Position numbers and translations under genes: made by a program. This document shows, piece after piece, positions 22,303 to 51,604 of a stretch of DNA of 64,000 nt. The stretch is from Escherichia phage outra: sequence record MN850645.1; one strand, given 5' to 3'. How positions within the stretch are numbered: the stretch's first letter is position 1; each line of letters starts with the position of its first letter. The notes beneath the pieces were generated by a model that was not told the origin of the DNA, ran no database searches, and saw only the letters and a list, made by a program, of their open reading frames with translations.

Positions 22303-22330
22303 TTGACACCTGAAATCAGTAAGCTATAAT
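22303..22330 (+). promoter_or_regulatory. consensus sigma70 promoter
   Basis: -35 TTGACA 22303-08, 16-bp spacer, -10 TATAAT 22325-30. Confidence 0.65.
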
Positions 22331-23128: not shown

Positions 23129-23186
23129 TTGACAATGGTTTCTAATAACGTATAATACTTACATCGAGAGCGGGAACACTTCCCGC
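23129..23186 (+). promoter_or_regulatory. consensus sigma70 promoter plus leader hairpin
   Basis: -35 TTGACA 23129-34, -10 TATAAT 23151-56, hairpin GCGGGAA-CAC-TTCCCGC 23170-86. Confidence 0.65.
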
Positions 23187-44180: not shown

Positions 44181-44261
44181 ATGACTTTACTAGAGAGTAT
44201 CGTAGTGTTAATCATCTTTATCATTGTTGTCATAGGATATTTTACAGAAGACTAAAATAAA

Positions 44262-44292
44262 GCCCCTAGAAGCGATTCTAGGGGCTTTTGTT
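44262..44292. terminator. bidirectional rho-independent terminator at strand switch
   Basis: 8-bp stem GCCCCTAG/CTAGGGGC with T-runs on both sides; lies between convergent gene blocks. Confidence 0.6.
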
Positions 44293-44355: not shown

Positions 44356-44613
44356 TTAAGAATGCATAAAATCTTCTTCAGGGCAGGTTGAGAGATAAGA
44401 GATGCACGTTGGGACAACAACAACATTATCTTTAAGGTTTGCAACCAAGCCTTTTGTAATTCCAGCCACTGCCCCGTTAATATCTGCTTGACGGATACCA
44501 AAACCTTGTTGTGCGGATAGATAACAAAATCCCTCACCTTTCTGTTGATTATTATTGAAGTAATAAACGTAGTGCATCATAAAATGGTCTTTAACGATTT
44601 GTTCTGTGGTCAT
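44356..44613 (-). CDS. hypothetical protein (85 aa)
   Basis: GGAGAA SD. Confidence 0.5.
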   Translation of the reverse strand: MTTEQIVKDHFMMHYVYYFNNNQQKGEGFCYLSAQQGFGIRQADINGAVAGITKGLVANLKDNVVVVPTCISYLSTCPEEDFMHS

Positions 44614-44621
44614 AATATTCT

Positions 44622-44647
44622 CCTATAAGAAAAGGGGCTTTCGCCCC
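44622..44647 (-). terminator. rho-independent terminator
   Basis: GGGGC-TTTC-GCCCC stem-loop 3' of Sir2-like gene. Confidence 0.5.
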
Positions 44648-44657
44648 CTTGGTCAAG

Positions 44658-45470
44658 TTACTTAGTCAAATGATCTTCTATCATTTTTATGAAAGCAGGA
44701 TTGCTAAAAGCCTCTGCTGCCTTTTCTCTATAAACAAAGACTCCTCTATCTTCGTAAAGAAGAGTTTCTTCGTAATTAATTCCTGGGTTAACAACAATCA
44801 TTTTTGTACCCATATTAAGTGCAGGAAATAATTCCCAATTAAAATTGATAACTTGGTTTGAACATCCTACTACAACAACCAAATCTTGCATGGTCAGAGT
44901 ATCAAACAAGTAAGCCATATCTGCATACAAAGGTGCAGCCTCGCCAAAAAATACAACATTAGGCTTCACCCAGTTATAATCATCTATGTTTATACTATTG
45001 TAACCAATGTCTACCAGTGTTTTGTAATCTCCAGGATGCATACGGTAAACTACTTCAGGAAGATACCCGTGCACGTGAATAACAGAATCCCTGTCCACAC
45101 CTGCTCGCTCTAGTAGATCATCAACGTTTGTTGTCAAGTTTACTACTTGGTTAGGATATTCCTTAAACCACTTTGCTATTTGAATATGTGCAGCATTAGG
45201 TTGTACATCTTTAAGCTCAACACGTCTTTTGTTATAAAATTCGTGTGTTTTGGCATACAAATCCATACCGTTCTCGTCTACACCACCGACCACTGGAAGA
45301 TCTGGAGATGTTCTAACACGATAACCTGCTTGGAAAGCTCCAATATCGCAGACCTCTTCTAAATCATATTCTTCCCATAAGGCACGACCACTATCTGTGT
45401 CTGTTCGGAATGTTCGAATCCCACTGTCTGCACTTAAACCTGCGCCACTAACAAAAATTACTCTTCGCAT
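44658..45470 (-). CDS. Sir2-family (sirtuin-like) NAD-dependent protein
   Basis: N-terminal GAGLSADSGIRTFR, NAAH...TTNVDDLLERAG...IHVHG, VVFFGE blocks match sirtuin motifs; no CxxC...CxxC Zn ribbon seen. Confidence 0.7.
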   Translation of the reverse strand: MRRVIFVSGAGLSADSGIRTFRTDTDSGRALWEEYDLEEVCDIGAFQAGYRVRTSPDLPVVGGVDENGMDLYAKTHEFYNKRRVELKDVQPNAAHIQIAKWFKEYPNQVVNLTTNVDDLLERAGVDRDSVIHVHGYLPEVVYRMHPGDYKTLVDIGYNSINIDDYNWVKPNVVFFGEAAPLYADMAYLFDTLTMQDLVVVVGCSNQVINFNWELFPALNMGTKMIVVNPGINYEETLLYEDRGVFVYREKAAEAFSNPAFIKMIEDHLTK

Positions 45471-46012
45471 TCAATATCCTCTTCGTAATCATCATCCCAA
45501 GAAGATGCGTCGTAACGCTCTTCCTCTTCGAAATCCCAATTAATTTCTACTCCAAAATCTAAAAACAATTTAACAATGTTTTCTGTAGAATAGTATTTAT
45601 CATAAGCGTTAGCTAGTTCCCAATACTTGTCACTCAATTTTTTATAAATAGGATCATTATAGTCATAATCTACTTTATAACCATAGTCATACATCTCTTG
45701 TTCAGCTTTAAGCATAGCTTCTGGTGTAAGAAGATTAGGGAACGGACGATTTCTTTCTTTTAACTTAGAAGCGATCCAGTTTGCAACATTCGCCACTTCA
45801 CCATCTCGATTATCACCTAAACAACTTGCATAATCTCCATCTTGGTAAGTGCCTAAATCCCCACTAACTTCATGTACAATACTTGAATACGATCCACACG
45901 TTTCACAATCTGAAAAAGTGTCTACTGTTGTAATATCAATAGATAAAACTGGTAAAGCCATAGCTTCTTTCACACAAGCCTCCTCATATAATAACATATC
46001 ATCAAAACCCAT
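45458..46012 (-). CDS. hypothetical acidic protein (about 184 aa; start uncertain)
   Basis: track start 46027 is TTG; ATG 46012 has GGAGGA SD. Confidence 0.45.
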   Translation of the reverse strand: MGFDDMLLYEEACVKEAMALPVLSIDITTVDTFSDCETCGSYSSIVHEVSGDLGTYQDGDYASCLGDNRDGEVANVANWIASKLKERNRPFPNLLTPEAMLKAEQEMYDYGYKVDYDYNDPIYKKLSDKYWELANAYDKYYSTENIVKLFLDFGVEINWDFEEEERYDASSWDDDYEEDIECEE

Positions 46013-46020
46013 ATATCCTC

Positions 46021-46049
46021 CACACAAATAAAGCCCCTGATTGGGGCTT
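46021..46049 (-). terminator. rho-independent terminator or attenuator
   Basis: AAGCCCC-TGATT-GGGGCTT stem-loop plus T-rich tail on minus strand. Confidence 0.5.
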
Positions 46050-46066
46050 TGGTTAAGTTTTACGGA

Positions 46067-46675
46067 TTATACCAGACTTTTAAGGTACTTGTCAAGGGCT
46101 TCTTGATCACCTTGACAAACATAGCAACGGAAATCTTGAGCCGAGGGTTCTTTGTCCTCGTCCCAATCCCAATAAACAGTACCTTTATAACGTGAACCTG
46201 GGAACTCGAAATATGCTGTATGAGTGATATGATGTGGGCCACCCCAAAACTGTATAAAAGTAAATTGAGGATATGCTGCTTTAACTGTATTTTCAAACCA
46301 AGTTTTACGATCTAATGCTTCGTTTATAAAATAAGCATGGCGTTCCATTTCATCCCAGTTTTTCCAAACGCATTTTTCATCCAGAGAAAAAACAAAATCT
46401 TCACTGTTGAATTCATCTGTATCTTCCAAAATATCATAATCATGTGCACTAGGTATCCACCATCCAGCTTCTAATAGTGCTTTCACGGGTACAAAACCTT
46501 TTTCAGCATATTGATCAAATTCTTTTACTCTACGTACAGTGCAGTATTCATCTTCACCACCAATGTCCAGCAGACAAGCACCTTTGCGTCTTGCTGCAAG
46601 ACCATGTGTATCAAAAACTACAACACTACCTTCACCATCTTCACGATCTACTTGATATGCAACTTTTTGAGTCAT
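46067..46675 (-). CDS. hypothetical protein (202 aa)
   Basis: ORF in operon orientation. Confidence 0.55.
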   Translation of the reverse strand: MTQKVAYQVDREDGEGSVVVFDTHGLAARRKGACLLDIGGEDEYCTVRRVKEFDQYAEKGFVPVKALLEAGWWIPSAHDYDILEDTDEFNSEDFVFSLDEKCVWKNWDEMERHAYFINEALDRKTWFENTVKAAYPQFTFIQFWGGPHHITHTAYFEFPGSRYKGTVYWDWDEDKEPSAQDFRCYVCQGDQEALDKYLKSLV

Positions 46676-46676
46676 A

Positions 46677-46799
46677 TTACCCCCAATGTATATGGGAAAT
46701 TAACCAAAAGATAAATTCCCAAAAACACCAACCAAGAAAAGTTAATGGAATTATAAAAGCTATCAGAGCAGTCTTCCAGCCTTTCCACAATGTTTCCAT
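46677..46799 (-). CDS. hypothetical membrane peptide (40 aa)
   Basis: hand-translated; GGAGGAAT SD; Trp-rich hydrophobic. Confidence 0.35.
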   Translation of the reverse strand: METLWKGWKTALIAFIIPLTFLGWCFWEFIFWLISHIHWG

Positions 46800-47788
46800 T
46801 ATTCCTCCATACATTTAAGAATATGTGCAATGACAGGTATAGTCCAACCGTTGCCTAACATCTTATATGCTTGTGTGTTACTACTCACTTTAAAGTAATC
46901 ATCTGGAACACCTTGTAAGCGGCAACACTCTTTAACCGTTAACTTTCTATAATGTACGCCTTCACTCAATTTTTCAAAGGCATCTAGATATCTTCCAGGT
47001 GGAATGTAGGCTAATAGTACGTCTTTCGGCACAGTCGTGAGGCAACGAGTTTTTTCACTGTCCTGAACTTCCAAACAATGTACCAAACGATCAGTTTTAG
47101 ATGTACTACGTTTGCCATTTTCATTAATTCTACGCCCATATATTGCTGCCGGATAAAAAACCAGTTGTCTGCGACTCTTTTCAAAATACTGTTCTATATT
47201 ACCACCTTTGGCATAATTTGCATCTATGCAATAAGCCTTATCTCTGTCTACGATACTATCATCTTCAATGATATCTTGCAACACTTCATTGGTAATATCC
47301 CAAGGTTTTATTTCCCAATTGCACCAGTATAAACGTTGTCTATTCTGTGCCGTGAAATCTGCGGAGTTAATGAACACGGGATCAACACCTAAGTAACTTG
47401 TGATCACGTTTTCCCACTCCACCTTCATCTTAACGTTCTCAAGCATGAACTTAACATTAGGGTTAAACTTTTTAATATGTTCAAGAATTTCAACATATTC
47501 AAAGAACAGTTTAGATCGCGGATCTTGAAAGTTCAAACCCTTACCAGAAGAAGAGAAGCCTTGGCACGGGCTACCACCTAACAAAAGATCAATTTCTCCC
47601 CACGGGATATCCCATTCTCTCCATTTTGTAACATCACCTAACTGAATAATATCTGGAAAATTTGCTTGGCTTTCGGCTATGGCAAATTTGTCTAATTCTG
47701 AAGCATAATATGTATCTACTTCAATACCTGCACTTTTTAGCGCAAGCATTCCTCCTGACATACCATCAAAAAGACTTAAAACTTTCAT
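46799..47788 (-). CDS. DNA (cytosine-5)-methyltransferase
   Basis: motif I LFDGMSGG, motif IV GGSPCQGFS, ENV motif. Confidence 0.85.
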   Translation of the reverse strand: MKVLSLFDGMSGGMLALKSAGIEVDTYYASELDKFAIAESQANFPDIIQLGDVTKWREWDIPWGEIDLLLGGSPCQGFSSSGKGLNFQDPRSKLFFEYVEILEHIKKFNPNVKFMLENVKMKVEWENVITSYLGVDPVFINSADFTAQNRQRLYWCNWEIKPWDITNEVLQDIIEDDSIVDRDKAYCIDANYAKGGNIEQYFEKSRRQLVFYPAAIYGRRINENGKRSTSKTDRLVHCLEVQDSEKTRCLTTVPKDVLLAYIPPGRYLDAFEKLSEGVHYRKLTVKECCRLQGVPDDYFKVSSNTQAYKMLGNGWTIPVIAHILKCMEE

Positions 47789-49631: not shown

Positions 49632-49952
49632 TTAACAAGTAATATTGGGAGTAACAATAGGATTAACAATTGGAGTAATAGGGTACGTAAACCAAGGGCT
49701 TCCAATTTCCCAAGGATAATAAGGTCTACGAGGATCATATGGAGGAGTTACTTCAGGCTTTTTCCAAATCTCCGCTAGTTGTTTCTTCCATTTATCCCTT
49801 GCTGTCTCATTATCTTCATCCAACTGTTCATCATTATCTTTTATTTCTGGTTTTGGAAATAAAAGCTCTTTGACTAACTCAACATCTTCCGTCTCAATAG
49901 TAGTTTCTTTCGTAAGTTCTCCTACTGTTTCTTTAATTGTGATTTTATACAT
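49632..49952 (-). CDS. hypothetical Pro-rich protein (106 aa)
   Basis: ORF in operon orientation. Confidence 0.45.
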   Translation of the reverse strand: MYKITIKETVGELTKETTIETEDVELVKELLFPKPEIKDNDEQLDEDNETARDKWKKQLAEIWKKPEVTPPYDPRRPYYPWEIGSPWFTYPITPIVNPIVTPNITC

Positions 49953-50698
49953 TAGTCCTCCTCTAAAGTAGAATAAAATTGTAACGTATTTGAATCATCA
50001 AAATATGCAAAGGTTAAATTACCATTGAAGCAAGATCCTGTGTCCATATATACCCTATTACTGCTAATTACAGGTTTAGGAACATAAGAATGCCCGTGAA
50101 ATACATAATCTACTCCTGAGACTCTAGGAAGAAGAATCCCTTCAAGTGCGCAATCTATCATATCACGATCCCACATTAAAGATTCTGTGAATCGAGAAAC
50201 TTGCTCTTTATTCATATTCAAACAAAATGGCAAAACTTCTGTCACTGGTAAATGTTCCAAAACTGAAGGATACCCACCGTGAATAAAGCCTAGTTTCATA
50301 TTACGATAATTGACAACAAGTACAACAGGTAAATCTTCTAGCATCAAAGCAAGAGCAGTTGCACCCTCTTCTCCACACTCGTCTAGAACTGTATGGCCTC
50401 CGTTCTGAAACCAACATTCGTAATATCGTCTATCACCTTCTAGCAACCCTTTAATCATCATATCTTCATGATTTCCACGAATACCATAACGATTTAGCTT
50501 TCTGGTGAATTCAACAACACAACGAAAATTCTGCTTGCCGCGATCTGTAAGATCTCCTAAAGATACAACAACATCTTGATCTCGGATACCTAAAGTATTA
50601 ACACCTTTCTGGTACAAATCAAAGCAACCATGTAAATCACCAATAATAAACAGGTCTTGATCATCTTTTACACTAATTTCTTGATATACTAGCATCAA
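49952..50698 (-). CDS. Ser/Thr protein phosphatase (calcineurin-like metallophosphoesterase)
   Basis: GDLHG, GDLTDRG, GNHE motifs. Confidence 0.85.
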   Translation of the reverse strand: MMLVYQEISVKDDQDLFIIGDLHGCFDLYQKGVNTLGIRDQDVVVSLGDLTDRGKQNFRCVVEFTRKLNRYGIRGNHEDMMIKGLLEGDRRYYECWFQNGGHTVLDECGEEGATALALMLEDLPVVLVVNYRNMKLGFIHGGYPSVLEHLPVTEVLPFCLNMNKEQVSRFTESLMWDRDMIDCALEGILLPRVSGVDYVFHGHSYVPKPVISSNRVYMDTGSCFNGNLTFAYFDDSNTLQFYSTLEED

Positions 50699-51031: not shown

Positions 51032-51604
51032 TTAATGTGTTAATGAAACTGCATAACTAAACACAGGTTCAGATATTACATCGGCTACAGTAATAAAAAC
51101 GTCTTCGTCTTGAGTTGTTTCTACACGACATACAGTTACACCATTCACCACGAATTCAACGCAATGTGGAATATCTTCACAAACGAAGGTAGTGTAAGTA
51201 ACACCCAAAGCATCATACAAAGATTTAACAGTGTTTGCAAGTGTCGCAGTTTCTTCTTTTTCTGAGACAATGAATGCTGTAACAATAAGATTGTTTGCAT
51301 AGTTTAGACTGTCCTCTATAGCCAATGATTTACAAGGTAGTAATGCAAAATATTTACCTGGTTTAATCAGACCTGCTTCCCATTGATTCAAAATTGCCTG
51401 GGATGGTTTAGTAATATAAAACAGATTTTCACTTGGGTTATCAATATTACTTCTGGCGATACAACGTGAAGGATTATTAATATCAAATACATGATCAAAA
51501 TCTACACAAACAGGTAAACTGAAAGGTGTGAATTTTTTATCTAATAATCCTATGGCTGATAATATGTTTGCTGTGCTTATCTTCCCGTTAAAAGCTAAAC
51601 GCAT
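51032..51604 (-). CDS. hypothetical protein (190 aa)
   Basis: ORF in operon orientation. Confidence 0.5.
   Translation of the reverse strand: MRLAFNGKISTANILSAIGLLDKKFTPFSLPVCVDFDHVFDINNPSRCIARSNIDNPSENLFYITKPSQAILNQWEAGLIKPGKYFALLPCKSLAIEDSLNYANNLIVTAFIVSEKEETATLANTVKSLYDALGVTYTTFVCEDIPHCVEFVVNGVTVCRVETTQDEDVFITVADVISEPVFSYAVSLTH

Follow-up and report, generated by a model that had tools for sequence, protein, structure and literature searches.

The question raised by this locus is what a virulent phage might do with a sirtuin that carries none of the cysteines of the usual CxxC...CxxC zinc module. The locus lies within a stretch of 64,000 nucleotides (referred to below as the window) from Escherichia phage outra, sequence record MN850645.1, a phi92-like E. 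coli myovirus of the Justusliebigvirus lineage that is 99% identical to phage Paula. The sir2 ORF, at 44658..45470 on the minus strand (as are the features of its cassette and immediate surroundings described below, unless stated otherwise), starts with ATG and is predicted to encode a protein of 270 aa. A first-pass annotation, made from the letters of the sequence, had described the product as Sir2-like, had singled out four motifs of a sirtuin core and the lack of a zinc ribbon, and had drawn a link to the Sir2 NADases of bacterial defence systems.

The assignment of the ORF to the sirtuins is borne out by its matches to Pfam SIR2 (PF02146; 80.1 bits against a gathering cut-off of 24, E=2.5e-22), to PHROG 2162 over the full length of the protein (aa 1-269, E=5.2e-105) and to E. 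coli CobB (1s5p), for which E is 9e-19 with the single sequence and 1.5e-25 with the family profile. The best sequence matches in the PDB are CobB, Sir2Af1/Af2 and SIRT5, and as judged by sequence the match of the sir2 product to sirtuins is far beyond chance. Structure prediction, which the first-pass annotation had proposed as a check, points the same way: the AlphaFold2 model has an overall pLDDT of 90.9, with the cofactor loop (aa 24-28) as its sole disordered stretch, and all of its top Foldseek matches are sirtuins, led by CobB 1s5p (target-normalised TM 0.86) and followed by Sir2Af1 and SIRT5. Orthology with CobB was also considered and rejected on the basis of the NCBIfam CobB equivalog models (NF040867, NF001753 and related), against which the protein scores 106 bits where the cut-off is 243 and 86 bits where it is 320; it is a relative of CobB and not an orthologue.

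Conservation was assessed in 120 close homologues, in a family alignment of 75 sequences and in 144 representatives at 50% identity, the last pooled whether of phage or of bacterial origin. The four core motifs are all present (aa 9-22, 113-124, 132-135 and 172-177). The NAD-binding motif and cofactor loop GAGLSADSGIRTFR (aa 9-22; 45405..45446) aligns to GAGISAESGIRTFR of CobB, and each of the residues G9, G11, S13, S16, F21 and R22 is kept in at least 134 of the 144 representatives. The segment TTNVDDLLERAG (aa 113-124; 45099..45134), aligned to CobB TQNIDNLHERAG, provides N115 (144/144) and D117 (139/144), which are predicted to contact the nicotinamide ribose; the Gln that canonically precedes this Asn (TQNID) is Thr114 in outra, a position held by Q in 89 and by T in 42 of the representatives. 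HVHG (aa 132-135; 45066..45077), aligned to CobB HMHG, contains the putative catalytic residue His134, conserved in all 144 representatives. By the account of the first-pass annotation itself, its proposal would fail if a careful alignment showed the catalytic His or Asn to be missing. Both are there: GAGLS (aa 9-13), F21/R22, N115, D117 and H134 align with both CobB and Sir2Af2, and these elements (the first as GAGxS), together with V172 and F175-G-E177, are essentially invariant over the 144 representatives. We show here that the fold and every residue for NAD+ binding and for cleavage of the nicotinamide-ribosyl bond are present in the sir2 product, which is very probably an active NAD+-cleaving sirtuin.

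The lack of a CxxC...CxxC module was likewise seen correctly. The protein contains only two cysteines, C41 and C203, and both fall outside the segment that runs from HG to FGE (aa 135-171; 44958..45068), which is cysteine-free and collinear with the CxxC...CxxC module of distant relatives. The two CxxC pairs that bind structural zinc in canonical sirtuin deacylases (classes I-IV and U) are therefore missing, not only from outra but from all 120 close homologues; more distant relatives keep them, and zinc-free and Cys4 forms are interleaved among the relatives in the alignment. In the AlphaFold2 model the segment forms a three-stranded sheet (strands 135-143, 151-154 and 167-172; pLDDT 94-96), and we show here, as far as a predicted structure allows, that the former zinc ribbon is retained as a cysteine-free beta-module. 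The zinc of sirtuins is structural and not catalytic (PMC8556138), and an otherwise canonical sirtuin that is naturally free of it would be a useful test of the need for structural zinc.

The elements that would contact a substrate are in part those of known deacylases. VVFFGE (aa 172-177; 44940..44957), aligned to CobB VVWFGE, corresponds to the VxFGE motif of the acyl-lysine tunnel and substrate loop in canonical deacylases, with F175 kept in 143 and E177 in 133 of the 144 representatives. Y79-N-K-R82 (45225..45236) aligns to FYNARR of CobB and would be the counterpart of Y92/R95, the pair by which class III enzymes of the CobB/SIRT5 type recognise acidic acyl groups through a YxxR motif; the placement of Y79 is anchored by the chain of a CobB Y92A mutant, which reads FANARR at that position. 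Neither residue varies in the family alignment of 75 sequences, and among the 144 representatives Y is found in 138 and R in 111. Other elements differ from those of CobB. The strand that follows GxS and makes up one half of the peptide beta-staple is SNQVINFNWELFP in outra as against SGHVYPAA in CobB. The family hardly departs from this version, which implies that substrates are recognised in another way than by CobB. A helical segment of the small domain (aa 42-74; 45249..45347; pLDDT 81-95 in the AlphaFold2 model) comprises 33 residues in outra against 11 in most representatives, an insertion of ~22 aa that is a gap in CobB.

The sir2 gene of outra is of a known kind, another orthologue in an established family, here with a lineage-specific partner gene, and the novelty implied in the first-pass annotation does not hold. 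Homologues are annotated in 982 phage records, T5.102 of T5 among them, and 911 of these cover at least 80% of the query; annotations of the phage family are two decades old, the loss of zinc ligands was published in 2016 (PMC5107563) and the clade was defined in 2022 (PMC9503650). The outra protein belongs with the PHROG 2162 orthologues of T5, rV5/FFH2, Mydo, the KVP40-like phages and GAP32, and with the 'distinct clade' of viral sirtuins described by Iyer et al. (2022), its close relatives being found in tailed phages of Proteobacteria. These enzymes are among the most widespread users of NAD+ in virulent enterobacterial phages (T5-like, rV5-like, phi92-like, KVP40-like and jumbo). The outra protein is 47-60% identical to those of T5-like phages, Mydo and rV5-like phages and has three features in common with them: a zinc module devoid of cysteine, the insertion at aa 42-74 and the motif SNQVINFNWELFP of the groove. 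Mean column identity in the 75-sequence alignment is 58% across phage families, which implies purifying selection on sir2. The Sir2/CobB proteins of the Vibrio phages phiSt2/phiGrn1 and KVP40, which were analysed in silico in 2016 and found to have no zinc ligands while keeping the active-site His and the lysine tunnel (PMC5107563), are homologous to the outra protein as Vibrio phage orthologues at about 40% identity, but they belong to another host and phage family and come with no partner like that of outra. Likeness to the characterised cellular enzymes is more distant. CobB (1s5p, 6rxj), a class-III NAD+-dependent lysine deacylase, shares the NAD+ motifs, the catalytic His, FGE and the Y92/R95 pair, but only ~26% identity, and the outra protein differs from it in having no zinc cysteines, a helical module longer by ~22 aa, Thr for Gln and another beta-staple strand. 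The class III enzymes human and zebrafish SIRT5 and Archaeoglobus Sir2Af1 have the same fold (Foldseek E about 1e-13 to 1e-15) and the YxxR motif, but are 19-25% identical and have a Cys4 zinc site of their own.

In outra, sir2 is the second gene of a cassette that comprises a promoter, a hairpin, orf184 and sir2 and that lies at the end of a leftward block of genes. The context differs from that of its PHROG 2162 relatives in that no genes for RNA ligase, HAD_SAK or Nudix proteins surround it. The two co-oriented upstream ORFs pointed out in the first-pass annotation both exist. The nearer one, orf184 (45458..46012; PHROG 9509), initiates at the ATG at 46012, preceded by the ribosome-binding site GGAGGA; at its 3' end it shares 13 nt with sir2 in a stop/start overlap, an arrangement that would couple the translation of the two genes. 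The product is hyper-acidic (pI 4.05, net charge -31), has no Pfam match over the cut-off and, by Foldseek of an AlphaFold2 model (pLDDT 82.6, built from 5 sequences only), no structural relative in the PDB (best E 0.057, TM 0.2). The farther one, orf202 (46067..46675; PHROG 8514), contains in its 3' end a promoter that matches the sigma-70 consensus perfectly (TTGACA-18-TATAAT, with the TG of an extended -10; 46066..46095), one of three such matches in the 64 kb where 0.12 would be expected. A GC-rich hairpin between promoter and orf184 (46030..46050) might serve as the terminator of the upstream gene and/or as a 5' stem-loop. The gene order orf202-orf184-sir2 is conserved in Phapecoctavirus, in which phage AV126 retains the orf184-sir2 coupling, an 11/12 version of the promoter at the equivalent place and an equivalent of the hairpin with a stronger T-run.

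Homologues of orf184 are confined to the Stephanstirmvirinae and a few jumbo phages. The notion that orf184 is a universal partner of Sir2 was rejected, since 136 phage records contain a homologue of it, as against 982 for Sir2; the jumbo phage pEa_SNUABM_12 carries one without an annotated Sir2 gene within 6 kb. The BASEL label of orf184 as a fragment of an aminoacyl-tRNA synthetase is similarly unsupported, with a PhetRS_B1 score of 15.2 bits against a cut-off of 26.8 and no relative in the PDB; nor is orf184 a paralogue of the other gene in the window with the same label, at 51032-51604 (BLASTP E=0.49).

Our preferred reading of the locus, held tentatively and at somewhat less than an even chance, is that sir2 encodes a catalytically competent, zinc-independent sirtuin that is made early, together with orf184, and acts as an NAD+-dependent lysine deacylase. 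Both genes would probably be made early by the host RNA polymerase from the consensus sigma-70 promoter. The enzyme, to judge from its closest characterised relatives, would transfer ADP-ribose from NAD+ to the acyl oxygen of an acylated lysine, with release of nicotinamide, and acidic acyl groups (succinyl, malonyl) may be preferred, as well as acetyl, because the Tyr79/Arg82 pair is kept. The enzyme would then be likely to serve in resetting how host or phage proteins are acylated. The near-identical phage VEcB carries, in a part of its genome outside the window, genes for NAMPT and PRPP synthetase that might recycle the released nicotinamide. The PHROG 2162 family is acidic (median pI 4.9, range 4.6-6.05; net charge -15 for the outra protein), which suggests a better fit to protein substrates than to RNA. 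A literature search for experimental characterisation of any phage sirtuin found in-silico work only, and taken for itself the choice of acyl-lysine as the substrate, which is drawn by analogy, is plausible though not quite an even bet. Several observations run against it. Among them are Thr114 in place of the canonical Gln, a beta-staple unlike that of CobB and scores far below the CobB equivalog cut-offs. RNA end-healing and sealing neighbours of sir2 in three other phage lineages would point to a different substrate. The T5-like phage DT57C has lost sir2 naturally, and the gene can thus be done without, at least under laboratory conditions.

The RNA neighbours bring up the strongest competitor of lysine deacylation, a role in RNA repair that was predicted by Iyer, Burroughs, Anantharaman and Aravind in 2022 for the phage sirtuin clade that they defined (PMC9503650, section 3.7.3). 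In this scenario the sirtuin would act in the manner of KptA/Tpt1, removing by NAD+-dependent ADP-ribosylation the 2'-phosphate left in tRNA or mRNA after cleavage by anticodon nucleases; the nucleases would be metal-independent enzymes of the host, and the partners a phage RNA ligase, kinase, cREC protein and phosphoesterases. We regard it as rather unlikely. The neighbourhoods on which it is based were confirmed here: Mydo and FFH2 (Vequintavirinae) have sir2 in an operon with RNA ligase, a cREC-like gene, a small ATPase/kinase, phosphoesterase and MazG, and T5 has sir2 (T5.102) and T5.105 within one promoter-to-terminator unit, T5.105 being a match to Pfam HAD_SAK_2 ('HAD domain in Swiss Army Knife RNA repair proteins', E=4e-20). 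The Justusliebigvirus lineage also holds all the module genes of the Vequintavirinae (identities to Mydo of 58% for Rnl, 74% for the ATPase, 51% for the cREC-like protein and 40% for the phosphoesterase), and a phosphate, in place of a carboxylate, could be the ligand of the invariant Y79/R82/R83 cluster. Nevertheless, the conserved end-processing and ligation neighbourhood of Mydo, FFH2 and T5 (Rnl, cREC, kinase, HAD_SAK, 2H, Nudix) is absent from both the operon and the window of outra. A tblastn search for Rnl, cREC, kinase, HAD_SAK and MazG gave no matches in the window; every match fell on VEcB sequence that the window does not cover. The window contains no tRNA genes. The module of VEcB is at 39.4-45.5 kb and its sir2 at 12.2-13.0 kb, ~26-32 kb apart, and in outra sir2 is served by a promoter of its own and paired instead with orf184. 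No RNA-repair genes adjoin sir2 in SE131, Vibrio phage D484 or GAP32. Salmonella-phage records contain few members of the Rnl family (14/701) as compared with Sir2 (289) and HAD_SAK_2 (271), so that T5-like phages appear to be without a ligase that leaves a 2'-phosphate junction. Furthermore, the residues of the narrow acyl-lysine tunnel are conserved, and so acidic a family is unlike typical RNA-binding enzymes. The likeness to KptA/Tpt1 itself is functional only and hypothetical, an NAD+-dependent ADP-ribosyl transfer proposed from gene neighbourhoods; KptA/Tpt1 has the fold of the ART superfamily and is not homologous to the Rossmann sirtuins. No sirtuin is known to act on an RNA 2'-phosphate. 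A broader form of the idea, which we consider less likely again, would have the protein be a nucleic-acid sirtuin and not a protein deacylase, undoing anticodon-nuclease damage by removal of RNA 2'-phosphates or by ADP-ribosylation of RNA or DNA ends, with Y79/R82/R83 binding the phosphate and orf184 controlling or targeting the enzyme in phi92-like phages; if true, it would be the first sirtuin to act on nucleic acid. The identity of the substrate would tell whether these phages rewrite the host acyl-proteome or possess a sirtuin able to repair RNA, and would also clarify the presence of NAD+ salvage genes in many of them.

Sirtuin chemistry also permits the transfer of ADP-ribose to a protein, and with its complete NAD+ site the outra enzyme might be a mono-ADP-ribosyltransferase like SirTM, SIRT4 or SIRT6 that modifies a host or phage protein (or DNA) in a take-over akin to that by T4 Alt/ModA/ModB. 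Such a role would be in keeping with a promoter of host type, the groove strand is highly conserved in a form unlike that of CobB, and one record labels an orthologue 'Sir2-like transferase'. We nonetheless hold it to be a poor prospect: both sequence and structure place the protein closest to deacylases, and it keeps two features of these enzymes, the FGE motif and the Y/R pair. No SirTM structure is among the top PDB matches by sequence or by Foldseek, and searches with Pfam, PHROG, PADLOC and NCBIfam found among the neighbours of sir2 neither the operon macrodomain partner (and GcvH-L/LplA) that goes with SirTM nor any other ADP-ribose eraser. Far less credible is the link to defence-type NADases made in the first-pass annotation, by which the protein would cleave free NAD+ or manipulate the NAD+ pool, for example in superinfection exclusion or in the shutdown of host metabolism. 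A Sir2 domain is present and is shared, with its NAD+ substrate, by ThsA, DSR1/2, Sir2-HerA and SPARSA; the outra lineage carries NAMPT and PRPP synthetase, and in GAP32 sir2 sits between NAMPT and a Nudix gene. However, no defence Sir2 model in PADLOC matches the protein (a lone PDC-S65 match, with E=0.0066 over 37 residues, is noise), and its nearest relatives are the class-III deacylases CobB, Sir2Af1 and SIRT5. It is a bare core of 270 aa without a sensor or partner domain, searches with Pfam, PHROG, PADLOC and NCBIfam found no HerA, pAgo, TIR or SLOG domains in the neighbours, and it keeps the FGE and Y/R peptide-substrate elements that defence NADases do not have. Depletion of NAD+ would, moreover, harm a virulent phage that encodes NAD+ salvage. 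The loss of the zinc ligands and the natural deletion in DT57C could, finally, be taken to mean that the protein is a catalytically dead remnant, made unstable when the zinc site disappeared and kept for a structural or regulatory role, but this is the least probable reading of all, given that the catalytic residues are all invariant across phage families ~50% diverged in sequence and that the cysteine-free module is modelled with such high confidence.

A hairpin with a T-run (44632..44650) lies directly 3' of the sir2 stop codon and is followed by orf85 (44356..44613; PHROG 15991), the last gene of the leftward block; AV126 has a small gene at the equivalent position. Searches of Pfam, NCBIfam and PADLOC found no domains in orf85, orf184 or orf202. 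Beyond orf85, a strong bidirectional terminator with a 13-bp stem (44259..44288; not assigned to either strand) marks the junction of the leftward block with a rightward block of small genes. The GC skew of the window changes sign at about 44 kb.

The minus-strand ORF at 44658-45470, to which the first-pass annotation had assigned a Sir2-like product without a zinc ribbon, is a real sirtuin-type gene of 270 codons (sir2 in what follows), and all four of the motifs quoted for it are found in its product, at aa 9-22, 113-124, 132-135 and 172-177. The Pfam SIR2 profile matches the product far beyond chance (80 bits against a gathering score of 24, E=2.5e-22), PHROG 2162, "Sir2 (NAD-dependent deacetylase)", matches it over its full length (E=5e-105), and the E. 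coli deacylase CobB is matched with E=9e-19 by the single sequence and 1.5e-25 by the family profile. In HMMER alignments with CobB and the Archaeoglobus sirtuin Sir2Af2, counterparts exist for GAGxS, F21/R22 of the cofactor loop, N115 and D117 of (T)QNxD, the catalytic H134, V172, F175-G-E177 and G202-x-S204. The NAD+ and catalytic residues are also invariant or nearly so in a 75-sequence family alignment and among 144 representatives at 50% identity; hence the catalytic His and Asn, whose disappearance had been proposed earlier as grounds for abandoning the assignment, are both in place. The gene is under strong purifying selection.

Canonical sirtuins carry a CxxC...CxxC zinc module between their HG and FGE motifs. 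The only cysteines of the phage protein are C41 and C203, neither of which lies in that interval, and the CxxC motif is absent from all 120 of the closest homologous clusters. In an AlphaFold2 model built from a 75-sequence alignment (mean pLDDT 90.9, pTM 0.88, with values below 50 only at aa 24-28 of the cofactor loop), the cysteine-free segment aa 135-171 forms three strands with pLDDT 94-96, and aligns collinearly with the CxxC...CxxC modules that more distant relatives carry. A Foldseek search of the PDB with this model placed CobB at the top (E=2.8e-17, target-normalised TM 0.86), followed by Sir2Af1 and SIRT5. Among representatives at 50% identity, the nearest have 0-1 Cys in the module and the Cys4 set is complete in many that are more distant, the zinc-free and Cys4 forms being interleaved. 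The role of zinc in sirtuins is structural and not catalytic (PMC8556138), and the sir2 product is predicted from its sequence to be a complete NAD+-cleaving sirtuin machine that dispenses with the zinc cysteines.

The first-pass annotation is thus right on both counts, that the protein is a sirtuin and that it lacks the zinc site, and both are already documented for phages, whose annotations routinely include the gene. Skliros et al. 2016 (PMC5107563) built models of the Sir2/CobB proteins of Vibrio phages and KVP40, in which the zinc ligand is absent and the His and lysine tunnel are kept, and listed T5 and GAP32 as bearers of the same gene. The interest of the locus lies in the biochemistry of an enzyme that is very widespread among phages, and in its lineage-specific acidic partner. 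The region shares 99% identity with Escherichia phage Paula and 97-98% with many phi92-like genomes (Justusliebigvirus, Stephanstirmvirinae), whose records label the gene "Sir2-like", "sirtuin family protein" or "NAD-dependent protein deacetylase". Homologues were found by tblastn in 982 phage records, with identities of 52-60% in T5-like phages (T5 gene T5.102), 56% in Mydo, 47% in rV5-like phages, 50% in Moazamivirus SE131, about 40% in Vibrio phages and 35% in the jumbo phage GAP32; metagenome-scale searches returned 1,164 clusters at 90% identity and 2,142 representatives at 50% identity (E<1e-3).

Several public records of a "Campylobacter phage", A150 and C14 among them, match phi92-like or rV5-like phages of E. 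coli with at least 96% identity, so that their host labels are probably wrong, and the orthologue in Pectobacterium phage P0069 is named "tail assembly protein". T5.105 (T5, L002 6142-6648) is listed in RefSeq as "Sir2 (NAD-dependent deacetylase)", a misannotation that has propagated, the encoded domain being an RNA-repair phosphatase of the HAD_SAK_2 type; T5.106 and T5.107 encode DUF7415 proteins in tandem.

As to function, our literature search found no experiments on the sirtuin of any phage. We tentatively favour NAD+-dependent lysine deacylation, with acidic acyl groups as possible substrates, because the nearest characterised relatives in both sequence and structure are class-III deacylases, because the acyl-lysine tunnel (FGE) and a Tyr/Arg pair are kept, and because the uniformly acidic family (pI 4.6-6.05) would fit protein substrates better than RNA. 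The pair, Y79/R82, corresponds to CobB Y92/R95 in an alignment whose register is fixed by the Y92A mutant chain of CobB (FANARR, wild type FYNARR); in SIRT5 and CobB it recognizes succinyl and malonyl groups. Unlike CobB, the phage protein has Thr114 in place of the Gln of TQNID and SNQVINFNWELFP in place of SGHVYPAA in the strand after GxS, both fixed in the close family, and its helical small domain (aa 42-74) contains an insertion of ~22 residues. A (D/N)-I-G-Y motif in the small beta-module (aa 154-157, about 45000-45011), conserved in the zinc-free and Cys4 relatives of this group and missing from CobB in these alignments, may serve as a substrate contact peculiar to the clade.

Iyer et al. 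2022 (PMC9503650) placed most viral sirtuins in a distinct clade from phages of Proteobacteria and predicted for them a KptA-like removal of RNA 2'-phosphates, a role that we consider somewhat unlikely here. It draws on gene linkage to RNA end-processing in three lineages, which these authors described for rV5/Mydo, T5-like SP15 and the jumbo Serratia phage BF. Our own inspection confirms these neighbourhoods: the order is phosphoesterase, RNA ligase (Rnl), cREC-like protein, ATPase, Sir2, DNA ligase, MazG in Mydo and FFH2, and in T5 the HAD_SAK_2 gene T5.105 (Pfam E=4e-20) shares one promoter-to-terminator unit with T5.102. Against it stand the acidic charge of the family, the apparently missing ligase of T5-like phages and the want of such linkage in the phi92-like lineage. 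The Justusliebigvirus RNA-repair module (Rnl 58%, ATPase 74% and cREC-like protein 51% identical to those of Mydo) lies outside the window, in the near-identical phage VEcB at 39.4-45.5 kb, 26-32 kb from sir2 at 12.2-13.0 kb. Only 14 of the 701 phage records with Rnl are from Salmonella phages, for which Sir2 is found in 289 and HAD_SAK_2 in 271; the T5-like phages therefore appear to lack Rnl. No tRNA genes occur in the window, and Sir2 has no RNA-repair neighbours in SE131 or Vibrio phage D484. ADP-ribosyl transfer to protein or DNA is quite unlikely; a free NADase, given that no defence-type HMM matches the protein, is very improbable, and a dead remnant is hardly to be credited.

Other neighbourhoods vary. 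In GAP32 (L009 392-5664) the sirtuin gene follows NAMPT at a distance of four small genes and immediately precedes a Nudix-domain gene, which links it there to NAD+ salvage and not to an RNA ligase; VEcB and Mydo, too, carry NAMPT and PRPP synthetase. In the phi92-like VEcB (L006 39362-50246, outside the window) MazG, DNA ligase, ATPase, RNA ligase, phosphoesterase and cREC-like genes are adjoined on the opposite strand by PRPP synthetase and NAMPT, the same set that flanks Sir2 in Vequintavirinae. In T5-like DT57C (L011 2468-2740) a natural deletion has joined a piece of Sir2 to the C-terminal portion of HAD_SAK_2 (annotated "sir2 defective"), so that both genes are dispensable under laboratory conditions.

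Upstream of sir2 lies orf184 (45458-46012, minus strand; ATG at 46012, ribosome-binding site GGAGGA), whose stop is overlapped by 13 nt by the sir2 start at 45470. Its 184-aa product has a pI of 4.05 and a net charge of -31, an extreme acidity in which it resembles DNA-mimic anti-restriction proteins, and carries a disordered poly-Asp/Glu tail and conserved cysteines C13, C36xxC39, C64 and C182. It matches no domain above any cut-off in Pfam, PADLOC or NCBIfam and has no structural relative in the PDB; the BASEL label "putative aminoacyl-tRNA synthetase" was rejected, being based on a sub-threshold Pfam match. Since orf184 is confined to Stephanstirmvirinae and a few jumbo phages, and the latter have no annotated Sir2 gene within 6 kb of it, we regard it as a lineage-specific companion and reject it as a defining partner of the family.

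The cassette has a host-type promoter, a perfect sigma-70 consensus (TTGACA-18-TATAAT with an extended -10 TG; 46095-46066, minus strand) within the 3' end of orf202 (46067-46675). A GC hairpin (46050-46030) precedes orf184, a hairpin with a T-run (44650-44632) follows the sir2 stop, and orf85 (44356-44613) comes next, before a strong bidirectional terminator (44259-44288). This terminator marks the junction of the leftward block with a block of small rightward genes, and the GC skew reverses its sign there. In the sister genus Phapecoctavirus the order orf202-orf184-sir2-small gene is kept, together with a promoter matching at 11/12 positions and with the coupling of stop and start (TAATG). 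Within 46030-46095, as also at L010 2914-2985 in Phapecoctavirus AV126, the promoter comes ahead of the preceding gene's terminator-like hairpin and does not follow it; orf184-sir2 transcripts would therefore start with this hairpin, which could be a 5' stabiliser or attenuator. The leftward block also encodes a Dcm-like C5 cytosine methyltransferase (46799-47788, minus strand, Pfam E=1.4e-43) and a calcineurin-like metallophosphoesterase (49952-50698, minus strand, E=2.9e-13). A 190-aa protein (51032-51604, minus strand), which related records call "histidyl tRNA synthetase" or "putative aminoacyl-tRNA synthetase", has no Pfam match, and BLASTP (E=0.49) shows it to be no paralogue of orf184. 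Perfect sigma-70 sites number three in the 64-kb window, against 0.12 expected, and the other two (TTGACA-N16-18-TATAAT; 22303-22330 and 23129-23156, plus strand) probably act as strong promoters of early transcription in the rightward block.
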